From the IMG/VR virus record IMGVR_UViG_2718218136_000003: DNA of 35,535 bases. One strand, 5' to 3'. Positions 1,315 through 35,535 of this stretch are shown piece after piece (position 1 is the first letter of the stretch; the number at the start of each line of letters is the position of its first letter). The translations under genes were made by a program, and so were the position numbers. This DNA comes from a virus (Duplodnaviria > Heunggongvirae > Uroviricota > Caudoviricetes). The notes under the pieces were generated by a model. It was not told where the DNA came from. It saw only the letters and a list, made by a program, of their open reading frames with translations, and did not search any database.

Positions 1315-1632
1315 ATGAAAAAGATAGCTGCTATATCATTAATTAGTATTTTTATTATGTCTGGTTGTGCTGTGCATAATGATGAGACAAGTATCGGTAA
1401 ATTTGGTCTTGCATATAAAAGTAATATTCAGCGTAAACTCGATAACCAATACTACACCGAAGCCGAAGCTTCTTTAGCCAGGGGCAGAATATCTGGTGCA
1501 GAAAATATAGTAAAAAATGATGCAGCCCATTTCTGTGTTACTCAGGGCAAAAAAATGCAGATAGTTGACCTGAAGACAGAAGGTGCAGGATTACATGGCG
1601 TCGCTCGTCTGACATTCAAATGTGGAGAGTGA
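1315..1632 (+). CDS. yegR: Small lipoprotein (signal peptide with lipobox-like SGC), 105 aa; positionally equivalent to E. coli yegR
   Basis: ORF 1255-1632 trimmed to internal ATG at 1315 preceded by GGGGGAAGGTGAG Shine-Dalgarno-like sequence; N-terminus MKKIAAISLISIFIMSGCA is a lipoprotein signal. Confidence 0.6.
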   Translation: MKKIAAISLISIFIMSGCAVHNDETSIGKFGLAYKSNIQRKLDNQYYTEAEASLARGRISGAENIVKNDAAHFCVTQGKKMQIVDLKTEGAGLHGVARLTFKCGE

Positions 1633-1727: not shown

Positions 1728-1789
1728 ATGAAGGGAGATTCTATCGATGTGGTCAATGGAAGACGGTGACCAGGGATAGGGCTTATGCA

Positions 1790-1817
1790 TAAAAAATAAG
1801 CCCGTGTAAGGGAGATT
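1790..1817. repeat. attL core: TAAAAAATAAGCCCGTGTAAGGGAGATT, identical to attR core
   Basis: Exact 28-nt match to 34002-34029; sequences diverge immediately on both sides. Confidence 0.85.
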
Positions 1818-1896
1818 TAGGGTGTCACCAGTAGGGGCTTTCAACGGTACAATGCGGGTTTGAGCGGCATAAATTACCACTGAAAGCCCTTAAACG

Positions 1897-2910
1897 TTAC
1901 TCTACTGTGGACACTGTGTGGACACTCTCGGCTTCAGTACCACCTCTTAGCGGATTAAGAGAAATGGCGTCCTGAAGGTACTCTGGCGCAAAATGAGCGT
2001 AAACCATAGTTTGCTCAATCCGCGTGTGACCTAGTATCCGTTGTAGCGTGATAATACTTCCTCCATTAATCATGAAATGAGTGGCAAAGCTGTGCCTTAG
2101 TGCATGTGTGGCTTGCCCCGTTGGCAAATCCGGTTTTATTGCTTTCATTGTTCGTCTGAAGCGAGGGTAATCAGCATCAGGGAATAAAAAACCTCGTTTG
2201 TTATCCGCGATCATTTTGGCAACAGCCTCTGAGATCGGGACGGTGCGTGGTTTGTTTGTTTTCGTTTTAACAAACGTGACGCGGTTATGGATGATATTTT
2301 CTGCTTTCAAACGAGCTGCTTCTCCCCAACGTGCTCCTGTACTCAGGCAAAGAATCGCAATCTTTTTATTGTCGCCGTCAAGTGCTGCAAGCAGTAAGGC
2401 AATTTCTTCCTGTGTGAGATAGCCTGTTTCTGGTTTTTCCTCCTTAAGCCTCTTTGTCCCTCTGATAGGGTGCTCACCAAAGAATAACTCCGCTTCAATC
2501 AGGGCTGTAAACATGCCGCTAATACATGTTAAATCACGATTGATACTCGAAGGTTTAATACCCTGACTTCTTCGGGTGGCGCAGTACTGGCTGATAAGGG
2601 ATTTCGTGATTTGAAATGCGCATGGGTCATTCGTTATTTTTGTGAAGATTTCAATTTTTCCAAGATTAGATTTCCCATGCTCTTCGTGTTTACCCTTTAA
2701 ATCCCACCAGATCTGTGTCAGTTCCGACAGACGTCGTTTGTCTGTTGGTTTTGATAGCCATTCTTTATTGTGGTGGTTGTACAACGTGTATTTTTCGAAA
2801 GCGACAGCTTCGCTTTTCTTATCAAACTTCCTACGGATGCGTTTTCCGTTACGTCCAGTAGGGCGGATGTCCACTTCATATCGACCATCATCGAGTTTTT
2901 TGATTGCCAT
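1897..2910 (-). CDS. int: P2-type tyrosine integrase, 337 aa
   Basis: Translation has the tyrosine recombinase C-terminal catalytic region (…ATHALRHSFATHFMINGGSIITLQRILGHTRIEQTMVYAHF…); same length as P2 Int; located next to attL and downstream of the C repressor on the same strand. Confidence 0.92.
   Translation of the reverse strand: MAIKKLDDGRYEVDIRPTGRNGKRIRRKFDKKSEAVAFEKYTLYNHHNKEWLSKPTDKRRLSELTQIWWDLKGKHEEHGKSNLGKIEIFTKITNDPCAFQITKSLISQYCATRRSQGIKPSSINRDLTCISGMFTALIEAELFFGEHPIRGTKRLKEEKPETGYLTQEEIALLLAALDGDNKKIAILCLSTGARWGEAARLKAENIIHNRVTFVKTKTNKPRTVPISEAVAKMIADNKRGFLFPDADYPRFRRTMKAIKPDLPTGQATHALRHSFATHFMINGGSIITLQRILGHTRIEQTMVYAHFAPEYLQDAISLNPLRGGTEAESVHTVSTVE
1906..1925. promoter_or_regulatory. 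Two direct TGTGGACAC repeats spaced 11 bp apart in the int-proximal (P') arm; candidate Int arm-type binding sites
   Basis: Direct repeat at 1906-1914 and 1917-1925, overlapping the 3' end of int; related copies TGTGGTCA / TGTGGACG with the same 11-bp spacing occur in the ogr-proximal arm at 33944-33962. Confidence 0.5.
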
Positions 2911-3025: not shown

Positions 3026-3325
3026 TTAACCAGTCTTTTGACCGGAGTGGGGCGACGTTGTTTCGTTTTGCCCAAAGTGTGCGAGAGCGGGCGCAATTTG
3101 CCCGGCTTCTGGAGCTACCTGATCAGTCATGAACCACAAAGTATATTTAGTAAATCTGGGATGTTGTAAGACCTTCATTATGGCTTCAACTCCAGCGTTT
3201 TTTGACCGGCTCTCATAGCTCGAAAGTGAGCTGTAGGCTACACCAGTTAATTCACTGAATTCTTTACGGTTTAACCTTTCAGATTCACGGATTAGCTTCA
3301 ACTTCTCCGAAACGTCTATTGACAT
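3026..3325 (-). CDS. C: Immunity repressor C (P2-type), 99 aa
   Basis: ORF 3026-3397 trimmed to ATG at 3323-3325; C-terminal half (…FTKYTLWFMTDQVAPEAGQIAPALAHFGQNETTSPHSGQKTG) matches my recollection of P2 C; divergent from cox. Confidence 0.85.
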   Translation of the reverse strand: MSIDVSEKLKLIRESERLNRKEFSELTGVAYSSLSSYESRSKNAGVEAIMKVLQHPRFTKYTLWFMTDQVAPEAGQIAPALAHFGQNETTSPHSGQKTG

Positions 3326-3446
3326 AATTACTCCGATTGCGTAATTTCTTGCTGATAGTGTGAAATGTTGCGCTTCTGGAGTTATCCTTTTAGGCAATAA
3401 TTAGCCATTAGGAGCCATTAGAAGCACTAAGGGAGAATCGTAGCAG
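3326..3446. promoter_or_regulatory. C/cox lysis-lysogeny switch region holding divergent promoters (Pc leftward, Pe rightward); contains direct repeat AGCCATTAG x2 at 3403-3411 and 3413-3421 as candidate operator
   Basis: 121-bp intergenic region between divergent C and cox starts; 9-bp direct repeat separated by 1 nt seen in sequence; role as C operator is inferred. Confidence 0.5.
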
Positions 3447-3722
3447 ATGAATAGACAGCTTGTAAGCGTGACTGATGCCGTGCCTTATCAGGAGTTTGCA
3501 AAACTCATTGGTAAAACTCCAAGAGCTGTAAGGGGCATGATTGAGAAAGGGAAATTACCAGTTATTGAGATTACTGACCCTCAGTCAGTATCGGGGCGTG
3601 CTGGTGAATATTGGGTATACCTTCCGGCATGGAATAACGGACTAAAACTGGCTTATGAAAGCCGTCCTAAAGAGATTCGTGACGGCTGGTTGATGTGGTT
3701 AGGTCTCGGTGAACCACGTTAA
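3447..3722 (+). CDS. cox: Cox (excisionase / Pc repressor, P2-type), 91 aa
   Basis: 91-aa ORF divergent from C, same length and position as P2 Cox. Confidence 0.85.
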   Translation: MNRQLVSVTDAVPYQEFAKLIGKTPRAVRGMIEKGKLPVIEITDPQSVSGRAGEYWVYLPAWNNGLKLAYESRPKEIRDGWLMWLGLGEPR

Positions 3723-8490: not shown

Positions 8491-8648
8491 TTGACATTCA
8501 TATTTTTACTGCGTTGGTGCTGTTTTTTGACGGTTGAAAGGAGTTATCTCGGAGAGCTAAAGCTAACAACTTACAAATATTCAAAAGTAAGCTTCCTGTT
8601 GCTAACATAAGGTCGATTTTTTATGTGGATGATGCAAAAAGGATAGCT

Positions 8649-9380
8649 ATGGATACTATAATCGCTTTTCTATCACTCGCTTTTTTTGTTGCTTTTTTCA
8701 TCGGGTTAATCAAGCCATCACTGGTGCGAATGCCAAGCCGCAAACGTGCAAGTGCGGTTTATCTCGGAGGAGGTTTTGTATTGAGCATAATTGGTTCAAT
8801 ACTCTATCCAACAGAAAAAAGCCAGCCAGTTGCTAAAACTGAAACATCAACCGTTGTAGAACACCAAGTCCAAAAAACATTCGAATATGGTGAAAAAACA
8901 CTCAAGGAATATCGGAGCGAGCCAAAGAAAACTCGACACGATATTGTGAATAGTTACATTGACTTTAAGAAAGTTCCAGTCACCGCATCAGATGCATTTT
9001 ATGCCTGCATGAGTGAGTATACATTTACCAAAGATGATGAGTTGAAACTCGGTGATGTTCTTGGGTGGTGCTTTAATGATTATGAAAATGACCCGAGTTC
9101 ACTAAATAATAAAATCAATCTTGATACATTTCAGAGTAATTTTAGTGGTTGGGATGGTTCTTATCGTCCATTGGAAAAACTAATTAAAGATAATATGAAC
9201 GATGATTCATCTTATAAACATGTATCAACGGTATATCATTTAGTTTTGAATAAAGACCCGCACGCCATTGTGAAAACGACGTTTCGCGGCACTAATGCTT
9301 ATGGTGGCATGGTCAAACAGACTGTAGCAGCGCGAGTTGACGTGCGAACGGGTGAGATCGATTCAATACTCGACAATTAA
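8649..9380 (+). CDS. Uncharacterised membrane-anchored protein, 243 aa: two predicted N-terminal TM helices plus ~170-aa soluble domain; cargo in the tin/old slot
   Basis: ORF 8625-9380 trimmed to ATG at 8649 with AAGGA Shine-Dalgarno 6 nt upstream; hydrophobic stretches IIAFLSLAFFVAFFIGLI and AVYLGGGFVLSIIGSILY; AT-rich codon usage unlike the phage backbone. Confidence 0.6.
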   Translation: MDTIIAFLSLAFFVAFFIGLIKPSLVRMPSRKRASAVYLGGGFVLSIIGSILYPTEKSQPVAKTETSTVVEHQVQKTFEYGEKTLKEYRSEPKKTRHDIVNSYIDFKKVPVTASDAFYACMSEYTFTKDDELKLGDVLGWCFNDYENDPSSLNNKINLDTFQSNFSGWDGSYRPLEKLIKDNMNDDSSYKHVSTVYHLVLNKDPHAIVKTTFRGTNAYGGMVKQTVAARVDVRTGEIDSILDN

Positions 9381-9400: not shown

Positions 9401-9460
9401 TCAGTGATGAAACTTGCTTTTAGTCTTGGCGGGGTTGAGCAATGAGTCTTGCAAGGTGTT
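9401..9460 (+). repeat. Copy B of the ~60-bp imperfect direct repeat, running into the ribosome-binding site and start codon of cargo gene 2
   Basis: Manual alignment to 8431-8490; copy B ends GTTAGC immediately before ATG 9464. Confidence 0.6.
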
Positions 9461-9463
9461 AGC

Positions 9464-10120
9464 ATGCGTAGAATGGAAGCTGCTTGGACGTGGGGTATTC
9501 ATATGAATTTAAAAATTTTCGGCATAATTGTCCTTTCTGCTTTGATGTTCGTTTTAGGTTTTTTTCTCGGTGGTTTTAATTGGGAATGGGCTGATAAGAA
9601 TTATGCAGGTGAGGTGGCGTTGTGGAGTATGTTAGGAGGGTGGTTATCCGCAATTGCAACTCTGTTTGCCGTGTTGGTTTCATTATATATGGCGTATCAA
9701 GCTACTCAGAATGAGATTGAAAAAATCAGGGTTACTCATGGAGTAAGTATGAGTGTCACTCATGACAATGAGTTAAGTTGTAATCTCATTATTCAGAACT
9801 TGAGAAATATGAAAGTGAATATTACTGGTGTTTTTTTGTCTCTAGGTAAATCATCAGGTAAGTACTCTTTGGATAAAGTAATTGACAATCGTAATATAAC
9901 GCTTTCATATAAAGGTGAAACAGAAAAGGTACAATTTGTAATCCATTCTGGGTATATTTGGTGGTCAATGTATAAATTATTCGATATGGATAAGAACATA
10001 GGTTTTGAAAAGGGTAAGATCTTGATAACAACCAACCTCAATACATATGAATTTGATTTGCCAAAAGAATATTTAAGAGCTTTTGAGAAAGCTTATTCGG
10101 AGTATCAGACAAAAAAATAA
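9464..10120 (+). CDS. Uncharacterised membrane-anchored protein, 218 aa: two predicted N-terminal TM helices plus ~150-aa soluble domain; cargo in the tin/old slot
   Basis: ORF 9449-10120 trimmed to ATG at 9464 with AAGGTG 5 nt upstream; hydrophobic stretches IFGIIVLSALMFVLGFFLGGF and WSMLGGWLSAIATLFAVLVSLYMAY; AT-rich. Confidence 0.6.
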   Translation: MRRMEAAWTWGIHMNLKIFGIIVLSALMFVLGFFLGGFNWEWADKNYAGEVALWSMLGGWLSAIATLFAVLVSLYMAYQATQNEIEKIRVTHGVSMSVTHDNELSCNLIIQNLRNMKVNITGVFLSLGKSSGKYSLDKVIDNRNITLSYKGETEKVQFVIHSGYIWWSMYKLFDMDKNIGFEKGKILITTNLNTYEFDLPKEYLRAFEKAYSEYQTKK

Positions 10121-22978: not shown

Positions 22979-25297
22979 ATGAGCACAAAATTCAAAACCG
23001 TTATCACCACTGCCGGTGCAGCAAAGCTGGCAGCGGCAACCGCGCCGGGAGGGCGGAAGGTCAACATTACCACGATGGCCGTCGGGGATGGCGGTGGTAA
23101 ATTGCCTGTCCCGGATGCCGGACAGACCGGGCTTATCCATGAAGTCTGGCGACATGCGCTGAACAAAATCAGCCAGGACAAACGAAACAGTAATTATATT
23201 ATCGCAGAGCTGGTTATTCCGCCGGAGGTGGGCGGTTTCTGGATGCGTGAGCTTGGCCTGTACGATGATGCGGGAACGTTAATTGCCGTGGCGAACATGG
23301 CCGAAAGTTATAAGCCAGCCCTTGCCGAAGGCTCAGGACGTTCGCAGACCTGCCGCATGGTCATTATCGTCAGCAGTGTGGCCTCAGTGGATCTGACCAT
23401 CGACACCACAACGGTGATGGCGACGCAGGATTACGTTGATGACAAAATTGCAGAGCACGAACAGTCACGACGTCACCCGGACGCCTCGCTGACCGCAAAA
23501 GGTTTTACTCAGTTAAGCAATGCGACCAACAGCACGTCTGAAACACTGGCCGCAACGCCGAAAGCGGTTAAGGCCGCATATGACCTTGCTAACGGGAAAT
23601 ATACCGCACAGGACGCTACCACAGCGCGAAAAGGTCTTGTCCAGCTAAGTAGTGCGACCAACAGCATGTCTGAAACGCTCGCCGCAACACCAAAAGCGGT
23701 TAAGGCAGCGTATGACCTTGCTAACGGGAAATACACTGCACAGGACGCCACCACAGCGCGAAAAGGTCTTGTCCAGCTCAGTAGCGTCACCAACAGCGAT
23801 TCTGAAACGCTTGCGGCAACGCCAAAGGCGGTTAAGACAGCGTATGACCTTGCTAACGGGAAATACACTGCACAGGATGCCACCACCGCGCGAAAAGGTC
23901 TTGTCCAGCTCAGTAGCGCCACCAACAGCGATTCTGAAACGCTGGCTGCAACATCAAAAGCGGTGAAGTCTGCCTATGACAATGCTGAAAAACGTCTTCA
24001 GAAAGATCAGAACGGTGCGGATATTCCGGGAAAGGATACCTTCACGAAAAATATCGGTGCCTGTCGTGCTTATAGCGGCGCTTTGAGCACTGAAGCCGGA
24101 AACTGGACAACCGCTCAGTTTATTGAATGGCTGGATTCCCGTGGTGCATTTAATCATCCGTACTGGATGTGCAAAGGCTCCTGGTCATATGCAAATAACA
24201 AAATCATTACGGATACCGGATGTGGTGATATCCACCTGGCTGGTTGTGTCGTCGAGGTCATGGGAACTAAATCTGCAATCACTATCCGAGTGACCACGCC
24301 GACAACATCAAGCGGTGGCGGTACAACCAGCGCGCAATTCACTTACATAAATCATGGGGACGGCTACTCCCCCGGCTGGCGTCGTGACTGGAATCGTCAG
24401 GGCGACGCAATGACCGGAACGATTAATCAGGATGGCGGAAGCCAGAATGCCTATATGTCTACGGCCTTATGTTCAGGCACCAGAGGCGGCAAAAAATATC
24501 TCAGAAAGTTTCGTGGTGGAGAAGGAGACACTATCTGGCATGAAACAGTACAGGGCGGGGTAGTTCGCTGGGCGACTGGTAATACTGATGCTCAGGAAGA
24601 ATTATCACTCAGCTCCGCTTATGGTCTCCGTTCAAGAGGTGAGATTACATCAAGCAGTGCTAATGGTCTGCGCATTGCTTATGGCAATTATGGATTCTTT
24701 ATCAGGAATGATGGCAGCAGCACTTATTTTATGTTGACTAAATCAGGTGACAGATTAGGCACTTATAATAATTTAAGACCACTGATTATAAATGATGCCA
24801 CGGGTGCTGTATCAATGGGGCATGGCCTGAGTGTTACAGGTGATATTGTCTCAAGTACCAAAGTACGTGCCGGTAGCGGGAAAAAGTTCACGGTCAGCAG
24901 CAGCAATACATCCACGAAGGAAGCCGCATTCAATTTGTGGGGAAACTCAAGTCGTCCTGTGGTGGCTGAATTAGGTGATGATGCAGGCTGGCATTTTTAC
25001 AGTCAGAGAAATACAGATAACAGCATCACTTTTGCTGTTAACGGGCAGGTATCACCATCTAACTATGGAAACTTTGATTCACGCTATGTCCGGGATATCC
25101 GGCTTGGTGGTGCTGCCACATACAAACCTGCGAACAATGGTATGACATGGACACATCAGGCACCGTCCGGGTGTGTATATTCCGGCATTATTGTTCAGGA
25201 TACCGGCTCAAACTCTGCCGATAACATTGGTGGCGTATATTACAGACCGGTGCAGAAATACATTAACGGGACTTGGTATAACGTGGCGCAGGTATAA
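22979..25297 (+). CDS. H: Tail fibre protein H, 772 aa, with an internal tandem repeat array
   Basis: Long ORF after the baseplate genes; conserved N-terminus; central 44-aa repeats; Gly/Ser-rich C-terminal region. Confidence 0.88.
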   Translation: MSTKFKTVITTAGAAKLAAATAPGGRKVNITTMAVGDGGGKLPVPDAGQTGLIHEVWRHALNKISQDKRNSNYIIAELVIPPEVGGFWMRELGLYDDAGTLIAVANMAESYKPALAEGSGRSQTCRMVIIVSSVASVDLTIDTTTVMATQDYVDDKIAEHEQSRRHPDASLTAKGFTQLSNATNSTSETLAATPKAVKAAYDLANGKYTAQDATTARKGLVQLSSATNSMSETLAATPKAVKAAYDLANGKYTAQDATTARKGLVQLSSVTNSDSETLAATPKAVKTAYDLANGKYTAQDATTARKGLVQLSSATNSDSETLAATSKAVKSAYDNAEKRLQKDQNGADIPGKDTFTKNIGACRAYSGALSTEAGNWTTAQFIEWLDSRGAFNHPYWMCKGSWSYANNKIITDTGCGDIHLAGCVVEVMGTKSAITIRVTTPTTSSGGGTTSAQFTYINHGDGYSPGWRRDWNRQGDAMTGTINQDGGSQNAYMSTALCSGTRGGKKYLRKFRGGEGDTIWHETVQGGVVRWATGNTDAQEELSLSSAYGLRSRGEITSSSANGLRIAYGNYGFFIRNDGSSTYFMLTKSGDRLGTYNNLRPLIINDATGAVSMGHGLSVTGDIVSSTKVRAGSGKKFTVSSSNTSTKEAAFNLWGNSSRPVVAELGDDAGWHFYSQRNTDNSITFAVNGQVSPSNYGNFDSRYVRDIRLGGAATYKPANNGMTWTHQAPSGCVYSGIIVQDTGSNSADNIGGVYYRPVQKYINGTWYNVAQV
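23498..23980 (+). repeat. About 3.7 tandem copies of a 132-bp (44-codon) in-frame repeat inside H (KGLVQLSSATNSxSETLAATPKAVKAAYDLANGKYTAQDATTAR)
   Basis: Unit starts at 23498, 23630, 23762 and 23894; near-identical at nucleotide level; also produces mirror ORFs on the opposite strand. Confidence 0.9.
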
Positions 25298-26032: not shown

Positions 26033-26788
26033 CTATTCCTTGGCCTCTTTATTTTTCTCGCCATCGCCAATGTAAAGAAGATAATCGTTTAAGGATATCC
26101 TTCCGGAGGGGCCGGTCCATGTTATCAATCCGTTCTCACGAAGATTAAATAATGCTTCCATGAACTCATTATCGTTAAAAGAATGATCCTCTGAGAACAG
26201 AATGTTCATTTTTCTCAATAGTTCTTCCACTTTAATCTTTTCATATCGCCTTATCAGACTTAGTGCTTTACGACGCATTAAGATTGTAGGTACTGCTTGT
26301 GAACGAATGGTTTTTTGTATTCCACTATCAAGAACTTTCTTGATCTTGCTCTCTAACTCTTTGATTTTAGTTTCATTATCTCCATTGGACTTAAGCTTTT
26401 CATCAACGATGCAAATAATTTCCTGACTAATGCTGTTCTTGAGGTTGTTTATTTTTTCTTCATTGTTGAGAATCTCATCAGAGCTTCCTGCATGGGGTTT
26501 TTTCCATATGTGCTGACGCATATCCGTTACCGTATCTCTCATCATAGAGAATGTATCTGAATATAACTTGTCAAATATTTTTTCCAGTCGTTCGACACTT
26601 GCCTGGATGTCTTTTGCTGCTTTAGTTGTCTCTTTAGAAGCCTCATTCGACATTTTATAAAAAACAAAAGAAAGCCAAATAGCCCCAATGGCGAGTACTA
26701 ATGAGGCTATTGTGGCAATAAAACCTATTATTGTTATTGCTGTATCTAATGTGCCTGCTGCATCTGTGACTACTGTTTCTGCTGCCAT
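26033..26788 (-). CDS. Uncharacterised AT-rich membrane-anchored coiled-coil protein, 251 aa (P2 Z/fun slot)
   Basis: Opposite strand to the tail genes; N-terminal hydrophobic helix (ITIIGFIATIASLVLAIGAIWLSFVFY) followed by a Lys/Glu-rich region; GAGGAT Shine-Dalgarno before ATG at 26788. Confidence 0.6.
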   Translation of the reverse strand: MAAETVVTDAAGTLDTAITIIGFIATIASLVLAIGAIWLSFVFYKMSNEASKETTKAAKDIQASVERLEKIFDKLYSDTFSMMRDTVTDMRQHIWKKPHAGSSDEILNNEEKINNLKNSISQEIICIVDEKLKSNGDNETKIKELESKIKKVLDSGIQKTIRSQAVPTILMRRKALSLIRRYEKIKVEELLRKMNILFSEDHSFNDNEFMEALFNLRENGLITWTGPSGRISLNDYLLYIGDGEKNKEAKE

Positions 26789-33682: not shown

Positions 33683-33901
33683 ATGTTTCATTGTCCTTTA
33701 TGCCAGCATGCCGCACATGCGCGTACAAGCCGCTATATCACTGACACGACAAAAGAGCGTTATCACCAGTGCCAGAACGTGAATTGCAGCGCCACGTTCA
33801 TCACCTATGAGTCGGTACAGCGATACATCGTGAAGCCGGGAGAAGTCCACGCCGTAAGGCCGCACCCGTTGCCGTCAGGGCAGCAAATTATGTGGATGTA
33901 A
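33683..33901 (+). CDS. ogr: Late-gene transcriptional activator Ogr (zinc finger), 72 aa
   Basis: ORF 33608-33901 trimmed to MFHCPLCQHAAHARTSRYITDTTKERYHQCQNVNCSATF…, the C4 zinc-finger protein of P2 as I recall it; last gene before attR. Confidence 0.9.
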   Translation: MFHCPLCQHAAHARTSRYITDTTKERYHQCQNVNCSATFITYESVQRYIVKPGEVHAVRPHPLPSGQQIMWM

Positions 33902-33911
33902 TTACAAACAG

Positions 33912-33938
33912 GAAGCCCCTCAGTCGAGGGGCTTTTTT
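33912..33938 (+). terminator. Rho-independent terminator after ogr (AAGCCCCTC-loop-GAGGGGCTT followed by TTTTTT)
   Basis: 9-bp GC-rich stem with a T-run immediately downstream of the ogr stop. Confidence 0.8.
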
Positions 33939-34001
33939 GTCGATGTGGTCAATGTGTGGACGTGACCAGAAATAAATCCTTTTATTTCATTGTATTACGC
34001 G

Positions 34002-34029
34002 TAAAAAATAAGCCCGTGTAAGGGAGATT
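34002..34029. repeat. attR core: TAAAAAATAAGCCCGTGTAAGGGAGATT, identical to attL core
   Basis: Exact 28-nt match to 1790-1817; overlaps the 3' terminator of cyaR. Confidence 0.85.
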
Positions 34030-34089
34030 ACACAGGCTAAGGAGGTGGTTCCTGGTACAGCTAGCATTTTATGGGTTATGTTTTTCAGC
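34003..34089 (-). ncRNA. cyaR: CyaR (RyeE) Hfq-dependent sRNA, about 87 nt
   Basis: Minus-strand sequence GCTGAAAAACATAACCCATAAAATGCTAGCTGTACCAGGAACCACCTCCTTAGCCTGTGTAATCTCCCTTACACGGGCTTATTTTTT matches CyaR as I recall it; ends in a terminator hairpin plus U-tract; lies between ogr and yegQ as in E. coli. Confidence 0.8.
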
Positions 34090-34173
34090 GAAACGGATGA
34101 TAACCTTAATAAATGCAGCTGTATGTGATCGGTTTCTAAGAATTTTCCATCCGGGAAAAATAATCGAAATTAA

Positions 34174-35535
34174 TCACTTACCGTGGGGATTACGCGTGGT
34201 TTCCCCGGAGAAATTACGCATCAGCAGCGCGTAATTGAGCTCAAGATCCTGCGGGACCGGGAGCCACACAGTATAACCATCGCCTGGTGCTATCGGCATA
34301 GCTTCGCCTTTGGCGTTTTCCATGTGCTCAAGGGTAAAATTAATGTTGCCTTGCGGCGTCATCAGCTCAAGGCTGTCGCCAACGGAGAATTTATTTTTCA
34401 CCGCTACCGCCGCGAGGTCCCCCTTGCGCTCACCGGTAAACTCACCAACAAACTGCTGGCGGTCAGAAACTGAATAACCGTATTCGTAGTTCTGATAATC
34501 GTCGTGAGTATGACGACGCAGGAAACCTTCGGTATAGCCACGATGCGCCAGACCTTCCAGAGTTTCCAGCAGGCTGGTATCGAACGGTTTTCCCGCAGCG
34601 GCGTCATCGATAGCTTTGCGGTAAACCTGTGCGGTGCGTGCACAATAGTAGAAAGATTTGGTACGACCTTCGATTTTCAGCGAATGCACGCCCATTTTGG
34701 TCAGGCGTTCTACATGGGCGATGGCGCGCAGATCTTTCGAGTTCATGATGTAAGTGCCGTGCTCATCTTCAAACGCGGTCATATACTCGCCCGGACGCTG
34801 GGCCTCTTCGATCATAAACACTTTGTCGGTTGGTGCGCCGATACCCAGCGTCGGCTCAACATTTTGCACCGGAATCGGCTCGTACTTGTGTACGATGTTG
34901 CCAACATCATCTTCTTTCCCTTCCTGGACGTTGTACTCCCAGCGGCAGGCGTTGGTGCAGGTGCCCTGGTTCGGGTCGCGCTTGTTGATATAGCCAGAGA
35001 GCAGGCAGCGACCGGAGTAGGCCATGCACAGCGCGCCGTGAACGAAGATCTCGATCTCCATATCCGGCACCTGATTGCGGATCTCTTCAATCTCTTCCAG
35101 CGACAGCTCGCGAGAGAGGATCACGCGGGTCAGGCCCATTTGCTGCCAGAATTTCACCGTCGCCCAGTTCACGGCGTTAGCCTGCACCGAAAGGTGGATC
35201 GGCATTTCAGGGAAGTGCTCACGCACCAGCATAATCAGCCCTGGATCGGACATAATCAGCGCATCCGGCCCCATTTCCACCACCGGTTTCAGGTCACGGA
35301 TAAAGGTTTTCAGCTTGGCGTTGTGCGGTGCAATGTTGACCACGACATAAAACTTTTTCCCCAGCGCGTGGGCTTCATTGATGCCGAGCTGAAGATTTTC
35401 GTGGTTGAATTCGTTGTTGCGCACACGCAGGGAATAACGCGGCTGGCCCGCATAAACAGCATCTGCGCCATAAGCGAAAGCGTAACGCATATTTTTCAGC
35501 GTTCCCGCCGGGGAAAGGAGTTCCGGTTTAAACAT
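34174..35535 (-). CDS. yegQ: Peptidase U32 family protein YegQ (tRNA hydroxylation protein), complete 453 aa
   Basis: Full-length minus-strand ORF starting at the window edge (ATG at 35533-35535); U32 family features including a Cys-rich segment (CMAYSGRC…CTNACRWEY); backbone-like GC content. Confidence 0.85.
   Translation of the reverse strand: MFKPELLSPAGTLKNMRYAFAYGADAVYAGQPRYSLRVRNNEFNHENLQLGINEAHALGKKFYVVVNIAPHNAKLKTFIRDLKPVVEMGPDALIMSDPGLIMLVREHFPEMPIHLSVQANAVNWATVKFWQQMGLTRVILSRELSLEEIEEIRNQVPDMEIEIFVHGALCMAYSGRCLLSGYINKRDPNQGTCTNACRWEYNVQEGKEDDVGNIVHKYEPIPVQNVEPTLGIGAPTDKVFMIEEAQRPGEYMTAFEDEHGTYIMNSKDLRAIAHVERLTKMGVHSLKIEGRTKSFYYCARTAQVYRKAIDDAAAGKPFDTSLLETLEGLAHRGYTEGFLRRHTHDDYQNYEYGYSVSDRQQFVGEFTGERKGDLAAVAVKNKFSVGDSLELMTPQGNINFTLEHMENAKGEAMPIAPGDGYTVWLPVPQDLELNYALLMRNFSGETTRNPHGK

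Follow-up and report, generated by a model that had tools for sequence, protein, structure and literature searches.

Among the phages inserted in genes for structured RNAs are phage 186, which resides in tRNA-Ile, as well as Fels-2 and SopE-phi, which are both found in ssrA (PMC3448106). Another sRNA gene targeted by phage is ryeB/sdsR in Salmonella (PMC3603311; PMC3333887). For E. coli, Bobay et al., citing Wassarman et al. 2001, referred to ryeE as "previously known to be targeted by phages" (PMC3603311), and "cyaR RNA" has been tabulated as the insertion site of Wphi2 (P2) in strain W, of ogr-D' in K-12 and of P2*B in strain B (PMC3032704). In addition, a pro483-like prophage of the P2 family is inserted at yegQ in O157:H7 (PMC4928038).

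The DNA analysed here, called the window in the following, is a stretch of 35,535 nucleotides from an IMG/VR record assigned to the Caudoviricetes. It almost certainly represents a full-length P2-type prophage integrated at the main P2 site of E. coli, the 3' end of the CRP-dependent sRNA gene cyaR (ryeE), and no sequence in the window contradicts integration at this position. The site adjoining yegQ and cyaR, which we take to be the preferred P2 site locI, was reportedly defined by Barreiro and Haggard-Ljungquist in 1992. A prophage at the cyaR terminator occupies the classic P2 attachment site, which is common and already known. A first reading of this DNA made from its letters (the sequence-only reading) had considered integration into an sRNA gene worth remarking on; the sRNA gene is indeed the target, but integration into this gene had been described before (PMC3603311; PMC3032704).

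The closest described relative is phage P2 itself, which shares with this prophage the attP core, the architecture of arm, IHF and Cox sites, the integrase and the chromosomal position between yegR and yegQ. While the att site shows no differences from P2, the immunity region, the tip of the tail fibre and two accessory-gene hotspots do differ. Wphi2 of E. coli W and P2*B of E. coli B (PMC3032704) and the pro483-like prophage of O157:H7 (PMC4928038) belong to the same phage family and use the same insertion locus, whereas their host strains and accessory genes are different. The cryptic remnant ogr-D' of K-12, consisting of ogrK and a fragment of gene D, has the same attR, that is, the phage arm (100 of 101 nt), the core and cyaR. 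In this remnant a deletion that begins within the attL core and reaches into gene D has left no more than a shortened left core and phage DNA of about 620 bp; the window, in contrast, contains the complete prophage with its two cores. Phages that target tRNA, tmRNA or other sRNA genes resemble the present case in two ways: their cores likewise repeat the 3' portion of a gene for a structured RNA, which is thereby rebuilt after integration, and they, too, enter a hairpin with dyad symmetry whose loop is conserved. However, the cyaR target is the intrinsic terminator of an Hfq-type sRNA and not a tRNA-like arm as in the tRNA and tmRNA cases.

Prophage ends and integration module

The window contains an exact 28-bp direct repeat, TAAAAAATAAGCCCGTGTAAGGGAGATT, which is present in two copies without extension on either side (Table 1). 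A 27-mer of this repeat has two matches in the window versus none in 100 dinucleotide-preserving shuffles. In a local blastn search against the whole P2 genome, homology begins at 1790 (P2 24355) and ends at 34029 (P2 24382) and thus coincides exactly with the outer limits of the two copies, and the repeat itself is the attP core of the P2 GenBank records, where it is annotated as Int core at 24356–24383. Between the two copies lie 32.2 kb with about 95–98 % identity to P2 over the main collinear blocks; for the region 1780–25000, megablast covered 84 % of the query at 96.8 % identity.

An empty site was reconstructed by joining 1017–1817 to 34030–34830, whereby the prophage and one copy of the repeat are removed. 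Over its whole length of 1602 nt this synthetic yegR-cyaR-yegQ junction is 100 % identical to the prophage-free E. coli strains E2865, UTME-10 and OkiPb01675, and the annotation of the matching prophage-free chromosomes at the junction is simply yegR and yegQ. A search with the synthetic junction showed the contiguous site in 4580 of 5426 complete E. coli genomes; in the remaining genomes the match is interrupted at query positions 767–799, which correspond to the core. Furthermore, the flanks are seen to be exchanged at the core when attL and attR are placed in a four-way alignment with the empty site and the K-12 remnant.

Short terminator-like sequences recur in genomes, and on this sole ground the repeat might be taken for a chance repeat, the target duplication of a transposition or a cyaR-like fragment that is borne by the phage and has no relation to the place of insertion. 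No support for such an origin was found, and its probability is practically nil: it is refuted by the match to the empty sites after removal of the prophage and one repeat copy, by the four-way alignment and by the P2 homology, which stops exactly at the repeat on both sides. The result of the shuffles and the presence of the same core between the annotated arm sites of P2 attP argue against it as well. The repeat is located at the recombination junction, and the repeat itself, the ends of the P2 homology and the reconstituted empty site agree in placing the prophage at the 3' end of cyaR, as the sequence-only reading had proposed. The alignment with an unoccupied yegR-cyaR junction, which it had named as a check, is the contiguous 100 % match to prophage-free strains given above. 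Neither a difference between the CyaR-like sequence and the reference copies of cyaR nor a position of the repeat away from the junction was observed.

Table 1 Coordinates of the features in the window. Positions are counted from the first nucleotide of the window
Feature	Position	Strand	Basis
yegS (lipid kinase), bacterial left flank	1–900	−	299-aa ORF; yegS annotated there in the empty-site strain E2865
yegR, bacterial left flank	1315–1632	+	105-aa ORF; yegR annotation in matching genomes
Degenerate P2 P arm-like bacterial DNA beside the core	1741–1789		TCGATGTGGTCAATGGAAGACGGTGACC in register with P2 P arm TCGATGTGGTCAATGTGTGGACGTGACC
attL core, incomplete cyaR 3' end (loop, 3' arm of the stem and U-tract)	1790–1817		Exact repeat; start of P2 homology
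P2-type (Peduovirus) prophage body	1818–34001		About 95–98 % identity to P2; four main segments differ
Cox-binding region of attL, putative	1834–1907		Transferred from P2 24399–24472 (Cox protein_bind); 98.1 % identity
int, P2-type tyrosine integrase	1897–2910	−	337-aa ORF; Pfam Int_N 1.3e-24, Phage_integrase 5.7e-22; aligns to P2 int
Int P' arm-binding site, putative	1905–1931		Transferred from P2 24470–24496
ogr, late-gene activator, last phage gene before attR	33683–33901	+	72 aa, MFHCPLCQ...MWM; ogr/ogrK in matching records
ogr/F-operon intrinsic terminator, convergent with cyaR	33912–33935	+	P2 24265–24288, annotated as rho-independent; gap-free alignment to P2
Int P arm-binding site, putative	33940–33967		Transferred from P2 24293–24320
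IHF-binding site of the P arm, putative	33971–34004		Transferred from P2 24324–24357 (IHF protein_bind)
attR core, 3' end of intact cyaR	34002–34029		Exact repeat; end of P2 homology; P2 attP core
cyaR (ryeE) sRNA gene, 87 nt	34003–34089	−	RF00112; identical to E2865 and K-12-like copies; fold
−10 hexamer TATCAT of the cyaR promoter, putative	34097–34102	−	Read from the sequence; −8 to −13 from 34089
CRP-type site TGTGATCGGTTTCTAA, centre near −42.5	34124–34139		Two mismatches to TGTGAN6TCACA
yegQ (trhP), bacterial right flank	34174–35535	−	453-aa ORF; yegQ/trhP annotation in matching genomes

The sRNA gene at the right end is recognised by the CyaR/RyeE model of Rfam (RF00112), which matches the minus strand at 34006–34091 over its full length (model positions 1–85) with 100.7 bits at a gathering score of 47 (E = 3.4e-19). 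The 87-nt gene is an exact substring of the loci of the prophage-free strain E2865 and of the K-12-like CAR, and yegQ adjoins it. Genes for tRNA or tmRNA were not found in the window. According to both the minimum free energy and the centroid fold, RNA positions 52–79 (34011–34038) form a terminator hairpin of 11 bp, which is directly followed by the 8-nt U-tail UAUUUUUU at RNA positions 80–87 (34003–34010). From these positions it follows that the right core copy, read on the cyaR strand, corresponds to RNA positions 61–87 and one nucleotide beyond the RNA, and it comprises the loop of 6 nt with the last two nucleotides of the 5' arm before it, and then the entire 3' arm with the U-tail. The predicted fold thus bears out the earlier description of the core as U-tract, 3' half of the stem and loop of CyaR. 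Likewise, the right-end copy does keep cyaR intact, its sequence being identical to the empty-site and the K-12-like copies, and DNA of the phage now lies downstream of the sRNA, as the P2 homology runs up to 34029. The attL copy is a 28-nt 3' fragment in whose predicted fold the terminator hairpin does not form.

On the phage side, the int region shares 98.1 % nucleotide identity with P2. In the P2 records the P arm and the IHF site are located on the ogr side, the Cox sites and the P' arm on the int side, and the putative IHF, Cox and arm sites were placed in the window on the basis of a gap-free alignment to the annotated P2 sequence. The P' arm contains two exact copies of TGTGGACA at 1906–1913 and 1917–1924, and the P arm contains TGTGGTCA at 33944–33951 and TGTGGACG at 33955–33962. 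These repeats on both sides of the core fit the arm consensus tgTGGaCa published for P2-type phages (PMC3448106). With an integrase, twin cores corresponding to the attP core, the arms and a regenerated attB, the locus appears to carry a P2-type site-specific integration module.

In such a standard tyrosine-integrase system Int would bind to the core and to both arms, IHF would bend the P arm and Cox would direct excision. The attP and attB sites have the 28-bp core in common, and recombination inside it leads to its duplication. The core being the 3' end of cyaR, the gene is rebuilt at the attR junction: the attR copy is joined to the rest of cyaR, resulting in an unchanged sRNA gene, and the attL copy beside int remains as a non-functional 3' fragment. 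In attB, the terminator stem with its dyad symmetry may provide inverted core-binding sites for Int, as in the case of tRNA-targeting integrases, and strand exchange probably takes place within the core, in or near the loop. An exchange at this place would mean that cyaR of the lysogen ends in ~20 nt of DNA that physically come from the phage; as the two cores are identical, the crossover point is not locatable from the window.

Degraded P2 elements are common at this site, for example the ogr-D' remnant of K-12, and the two junctions differ in frequency. Among 5426 complete E. coli genomes, 1125 have the ogr-attR-cyaR junction and 807 (about 15 %; at least 80 % coverage) the yegR-attL-int junction, and the excess over the int side includes the K-12 lineage. 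At attL the window is matched at 100 % by ST2350 (NZ_CP031321.1), which the strain resembles. The element in the window could on these grounds be a defective resident whose att sites are fossils of an old integration, but this is improbable. Its 32.2 kb are collinear with P2 at about 95–98 % identity, int, ogr, both arms and both cores are kept, the long ORFs for replication, head and tail are intact, and no truncations were seen in the ORF list.

Segments that differ from P2

The full-length prophage departs from P2 in its immunity region (3156–3468). Where P2 has repressor C, the minus strand carries an ORF (3026–3397; 123 aa) with an HTH_3 domain, and since the region is unlike that of P2, the immunity type is probably a different one.

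The segment 7982–10249 has no homology to P2 and replaces the accessory locus orf91-tin-old, which in P2 is an anti-phage hotspot. Two ORFs on the plus strand, 8625–9380 (251 aa) and 9449–10120 (223 aa), gave no match in Pfam or PADLOC and match only PHROGs of unknown function (phrog_3403 and phrog_16957). Because of the hotspot in P2, both are candidates for uncharacterised defence genes. At a second accessory-gene hotspot, the segment 25914–27083 without P2 homology replaces the fun(Z) locus. The ORF 26033–26788 on the minus strand (251 aa) has no Pfam match above the cut-off and no PADLOC match, and it matches phrog_36054, whose function is unknown.

The tail-fibre gene (ORF 22979–25297) contains three tandem copies of a 132-bp unit at 23497–23986, which are 81–87 % identical. 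A further segment of the tail-fibre region, 23969–24880, lacks homology to P2, which suggests a different receptor specificity.

Promoter and output of cyaR

Transcription of CyaR has been described as governed by cAMP-CRP (PMC3333887). The hexamer TATCAT upstream of the gene is the probable −10 element, and the 16-bp sequence TGTGATCGGTTTCTAA is the only good candidate for a CRP site upstream of cyaR, with the TCACA half-site on the cyaR strand at 34124–34128. A scan for TGTGAN6TCACA with at most two mismatches has no discriminating power, as it gave 22 matches in the window versus 16.1 expected. Since the consensus scan cannot single out the site statistically, its conservation was considered across 119 cyaR loci, namely the window and 118 of the 120 loci from other species recovered with a cyaR pattern (about 40 named genera). 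Of these 119 loci, 118 show TTAGAAnnnGATCACA at the equivalent position of the cyaR strand, with hardly any variation at single positions. The upstream sequence is consistent with a cyaR promoter with a CRP-type site, and its conservation agrees with the published CRP dependence (PMC3333887). A possible CRP half-site had already been suspected by the sequence-only reading. A CRP-type site is present and conserved, but its assignment to 34135–34150 was wrong; this interval is about 10 nt off and overlaps only the weaker half of the site at 34124–34139.

Some features of the occupied site might be taken to indicate that integration alters the output of CyaR, with termination efficiency, 3' processing or antisense read-through changed by the downstream phage sequence; for termination and 3' processing the sequence-only reading had raised this possibility. 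Empty and occupied sites diverge from the second nucleotide after the U-tail. The U-tract of the empty site and of attL can pair into an 8-bp hairpin, GGGCUUAU/AUAAGCCC, which is present in the predicted fold of attL, whereas the U-tract of attR cannot. In addition, the ogr/F-operon transcription unit now converges on cyaR. However, the annotated ogr terminator is located between ogr and cyaR, and neither the complete 11-bp terminator hairpin nor the U-rich tail of 8 nt has changed. Behind cyaR, the K-12-type remnant carries a phage arm that agrees with that of the window in 100 of 101 nt, and over the 690-nt junction MG1655 shows 98.7 % identity. Since this phage-derived sequence thus follows cyaR in the K-12-type remnant as well, an effect on CyaR termination is unlikely, and for CyaR output as a whole a change is very improbable. 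CyaR was reportedly characterised as an 87-nt RNA in K-12, so that its reference behaviour would already reflect the context of the phage arm. We infer that CyaR expression is unaffected by the prophage.

The cyaR 3' end in other genomes

P arm-like sequence flanks the far side of the core in all empty E. coli sites examined. In the window, this bacterial DNA lies beside the attL core (Table 1), and it is identical in the prophage-free strain E2865 (E2865 locus ~2225–2273). The sequence TCGATGTGGTCAATGGAAGACGGTGACC...TTATGCA is in register with TCGATGTGGTCAATGTGTGGACGTGACC...TTACGCG of P2, with 16 nt missing within the stretch of the IHF site; a 15-nt exact run, TCGATGTGGTCAATG, is followed by GTGACCAG and then by TTAyGCr, all in register. 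Because this flank aligns with the P2 P arm, the "empty" attB has the appearance of a healed attR from an ancient lysogen of the P2 family, and the flank that of a fossil of this earlier site.

The region between yegR and this flank shows some further peculiarities. A strong 11-bp inverted repeat, AGCACGATGCC...GGCATCGTGCT, is located at 1694–1727 downstream of yegR and is not followed by a T-run. It precedes the sequence GAAGGGAGATT at 1730–1740, the last 10 bases of which are the end of the att core. This sequence came to lie opposite the ogr terminator region in two alignments, with weak similarity, and may be either a second partial copy of the core or a coincidence. Some E. coli genomes possess an extra segment of 171 bp just after yegR (S65EC locus ~815–985). 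Its interpretation as a larger phage fossil was rejected; the segment is an AT-rich insertion and does not adjoin the att site.

In other species, sequence of the P2-type arm and IHF site is found directly after the U-tail of cyaR, for example in Citrobacter youngae, E. albertii, Buttiauxella, Enterobacter and one Enterobacteriaceae isolate. The arm of E. albertii differs from the flank of E. coli and is closer to P2, and Escherichia sp. E1V33 has no such arm. A tblastn search with Ogr and Int detected an Ogr homolog downstream of cyaR in 3 of the 120 loci from other species, among them those of Citrobacter youngae and one Enterobacteriaceae isolate; the remaining P-arm-like sequences may belong to remnants or to phages whose genes are too diverged for detection. 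Three variants of the core, ...GCCCGTG..., ...GCCTGCG... and ...GCCCGCG..., occur at prophage junctions from IMG/VR (120 loci sampled). They differ at one or both of two positions in the 3' arm of the stem, and each variant adjoins cyaR in attR-type junctions and P2-type int-side sequence in attL-type junctions. The arm sequences after the U-tail together with the core variants indicate that the 3' end of cyaR is a target of the P2 family well beyond E. coli. On the host side, the core of at least one E. coli lineage (S65EC; locus ~1145–1172), which also has the 171-bp insertion, carries T in place of C at a single position (AAGCCTGTGTAAGG); a G-U pair of the terminator stem thereby becomes A-U and the stem of the CyaR terminator is fully Watson-Crick. 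A prophage junction with this core allele was not found among the 120 IMG/VR loci sampled.

The value of the analysis lies mainly in the correct annotation of the prophage, the boundaries of which are fixed to the base at 1790 and 34029. The locus is a clean non-tRNA case in which a phage that integrates into a structured RNA gene at its 3' end also rebuilds it, and for ryeE/cyaR this was recognised as long ago as the early 2000s. Parts possibly worth further work are the fossil P arm in the "empty" sites and a possible co-variation of phage core and host terminator alleles. That the 3' end of cyaR is beyond a mere landing pad, namely a long-standing, co-evolving target of the whole P2 family, is a tentative and rather doubtful proposal drawn from these sequence comparisons. 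On this view, the phage core would provide CyaR with its 3' stem arm and U-tail (~20 nt) in every lysogen. If it is true, integration and excision of P2-family phages could act as a gene-conversion force on an sRNA terminator or, alternatively, terminator alleles could set the susceptibility to lysogeny at the cyaR site.
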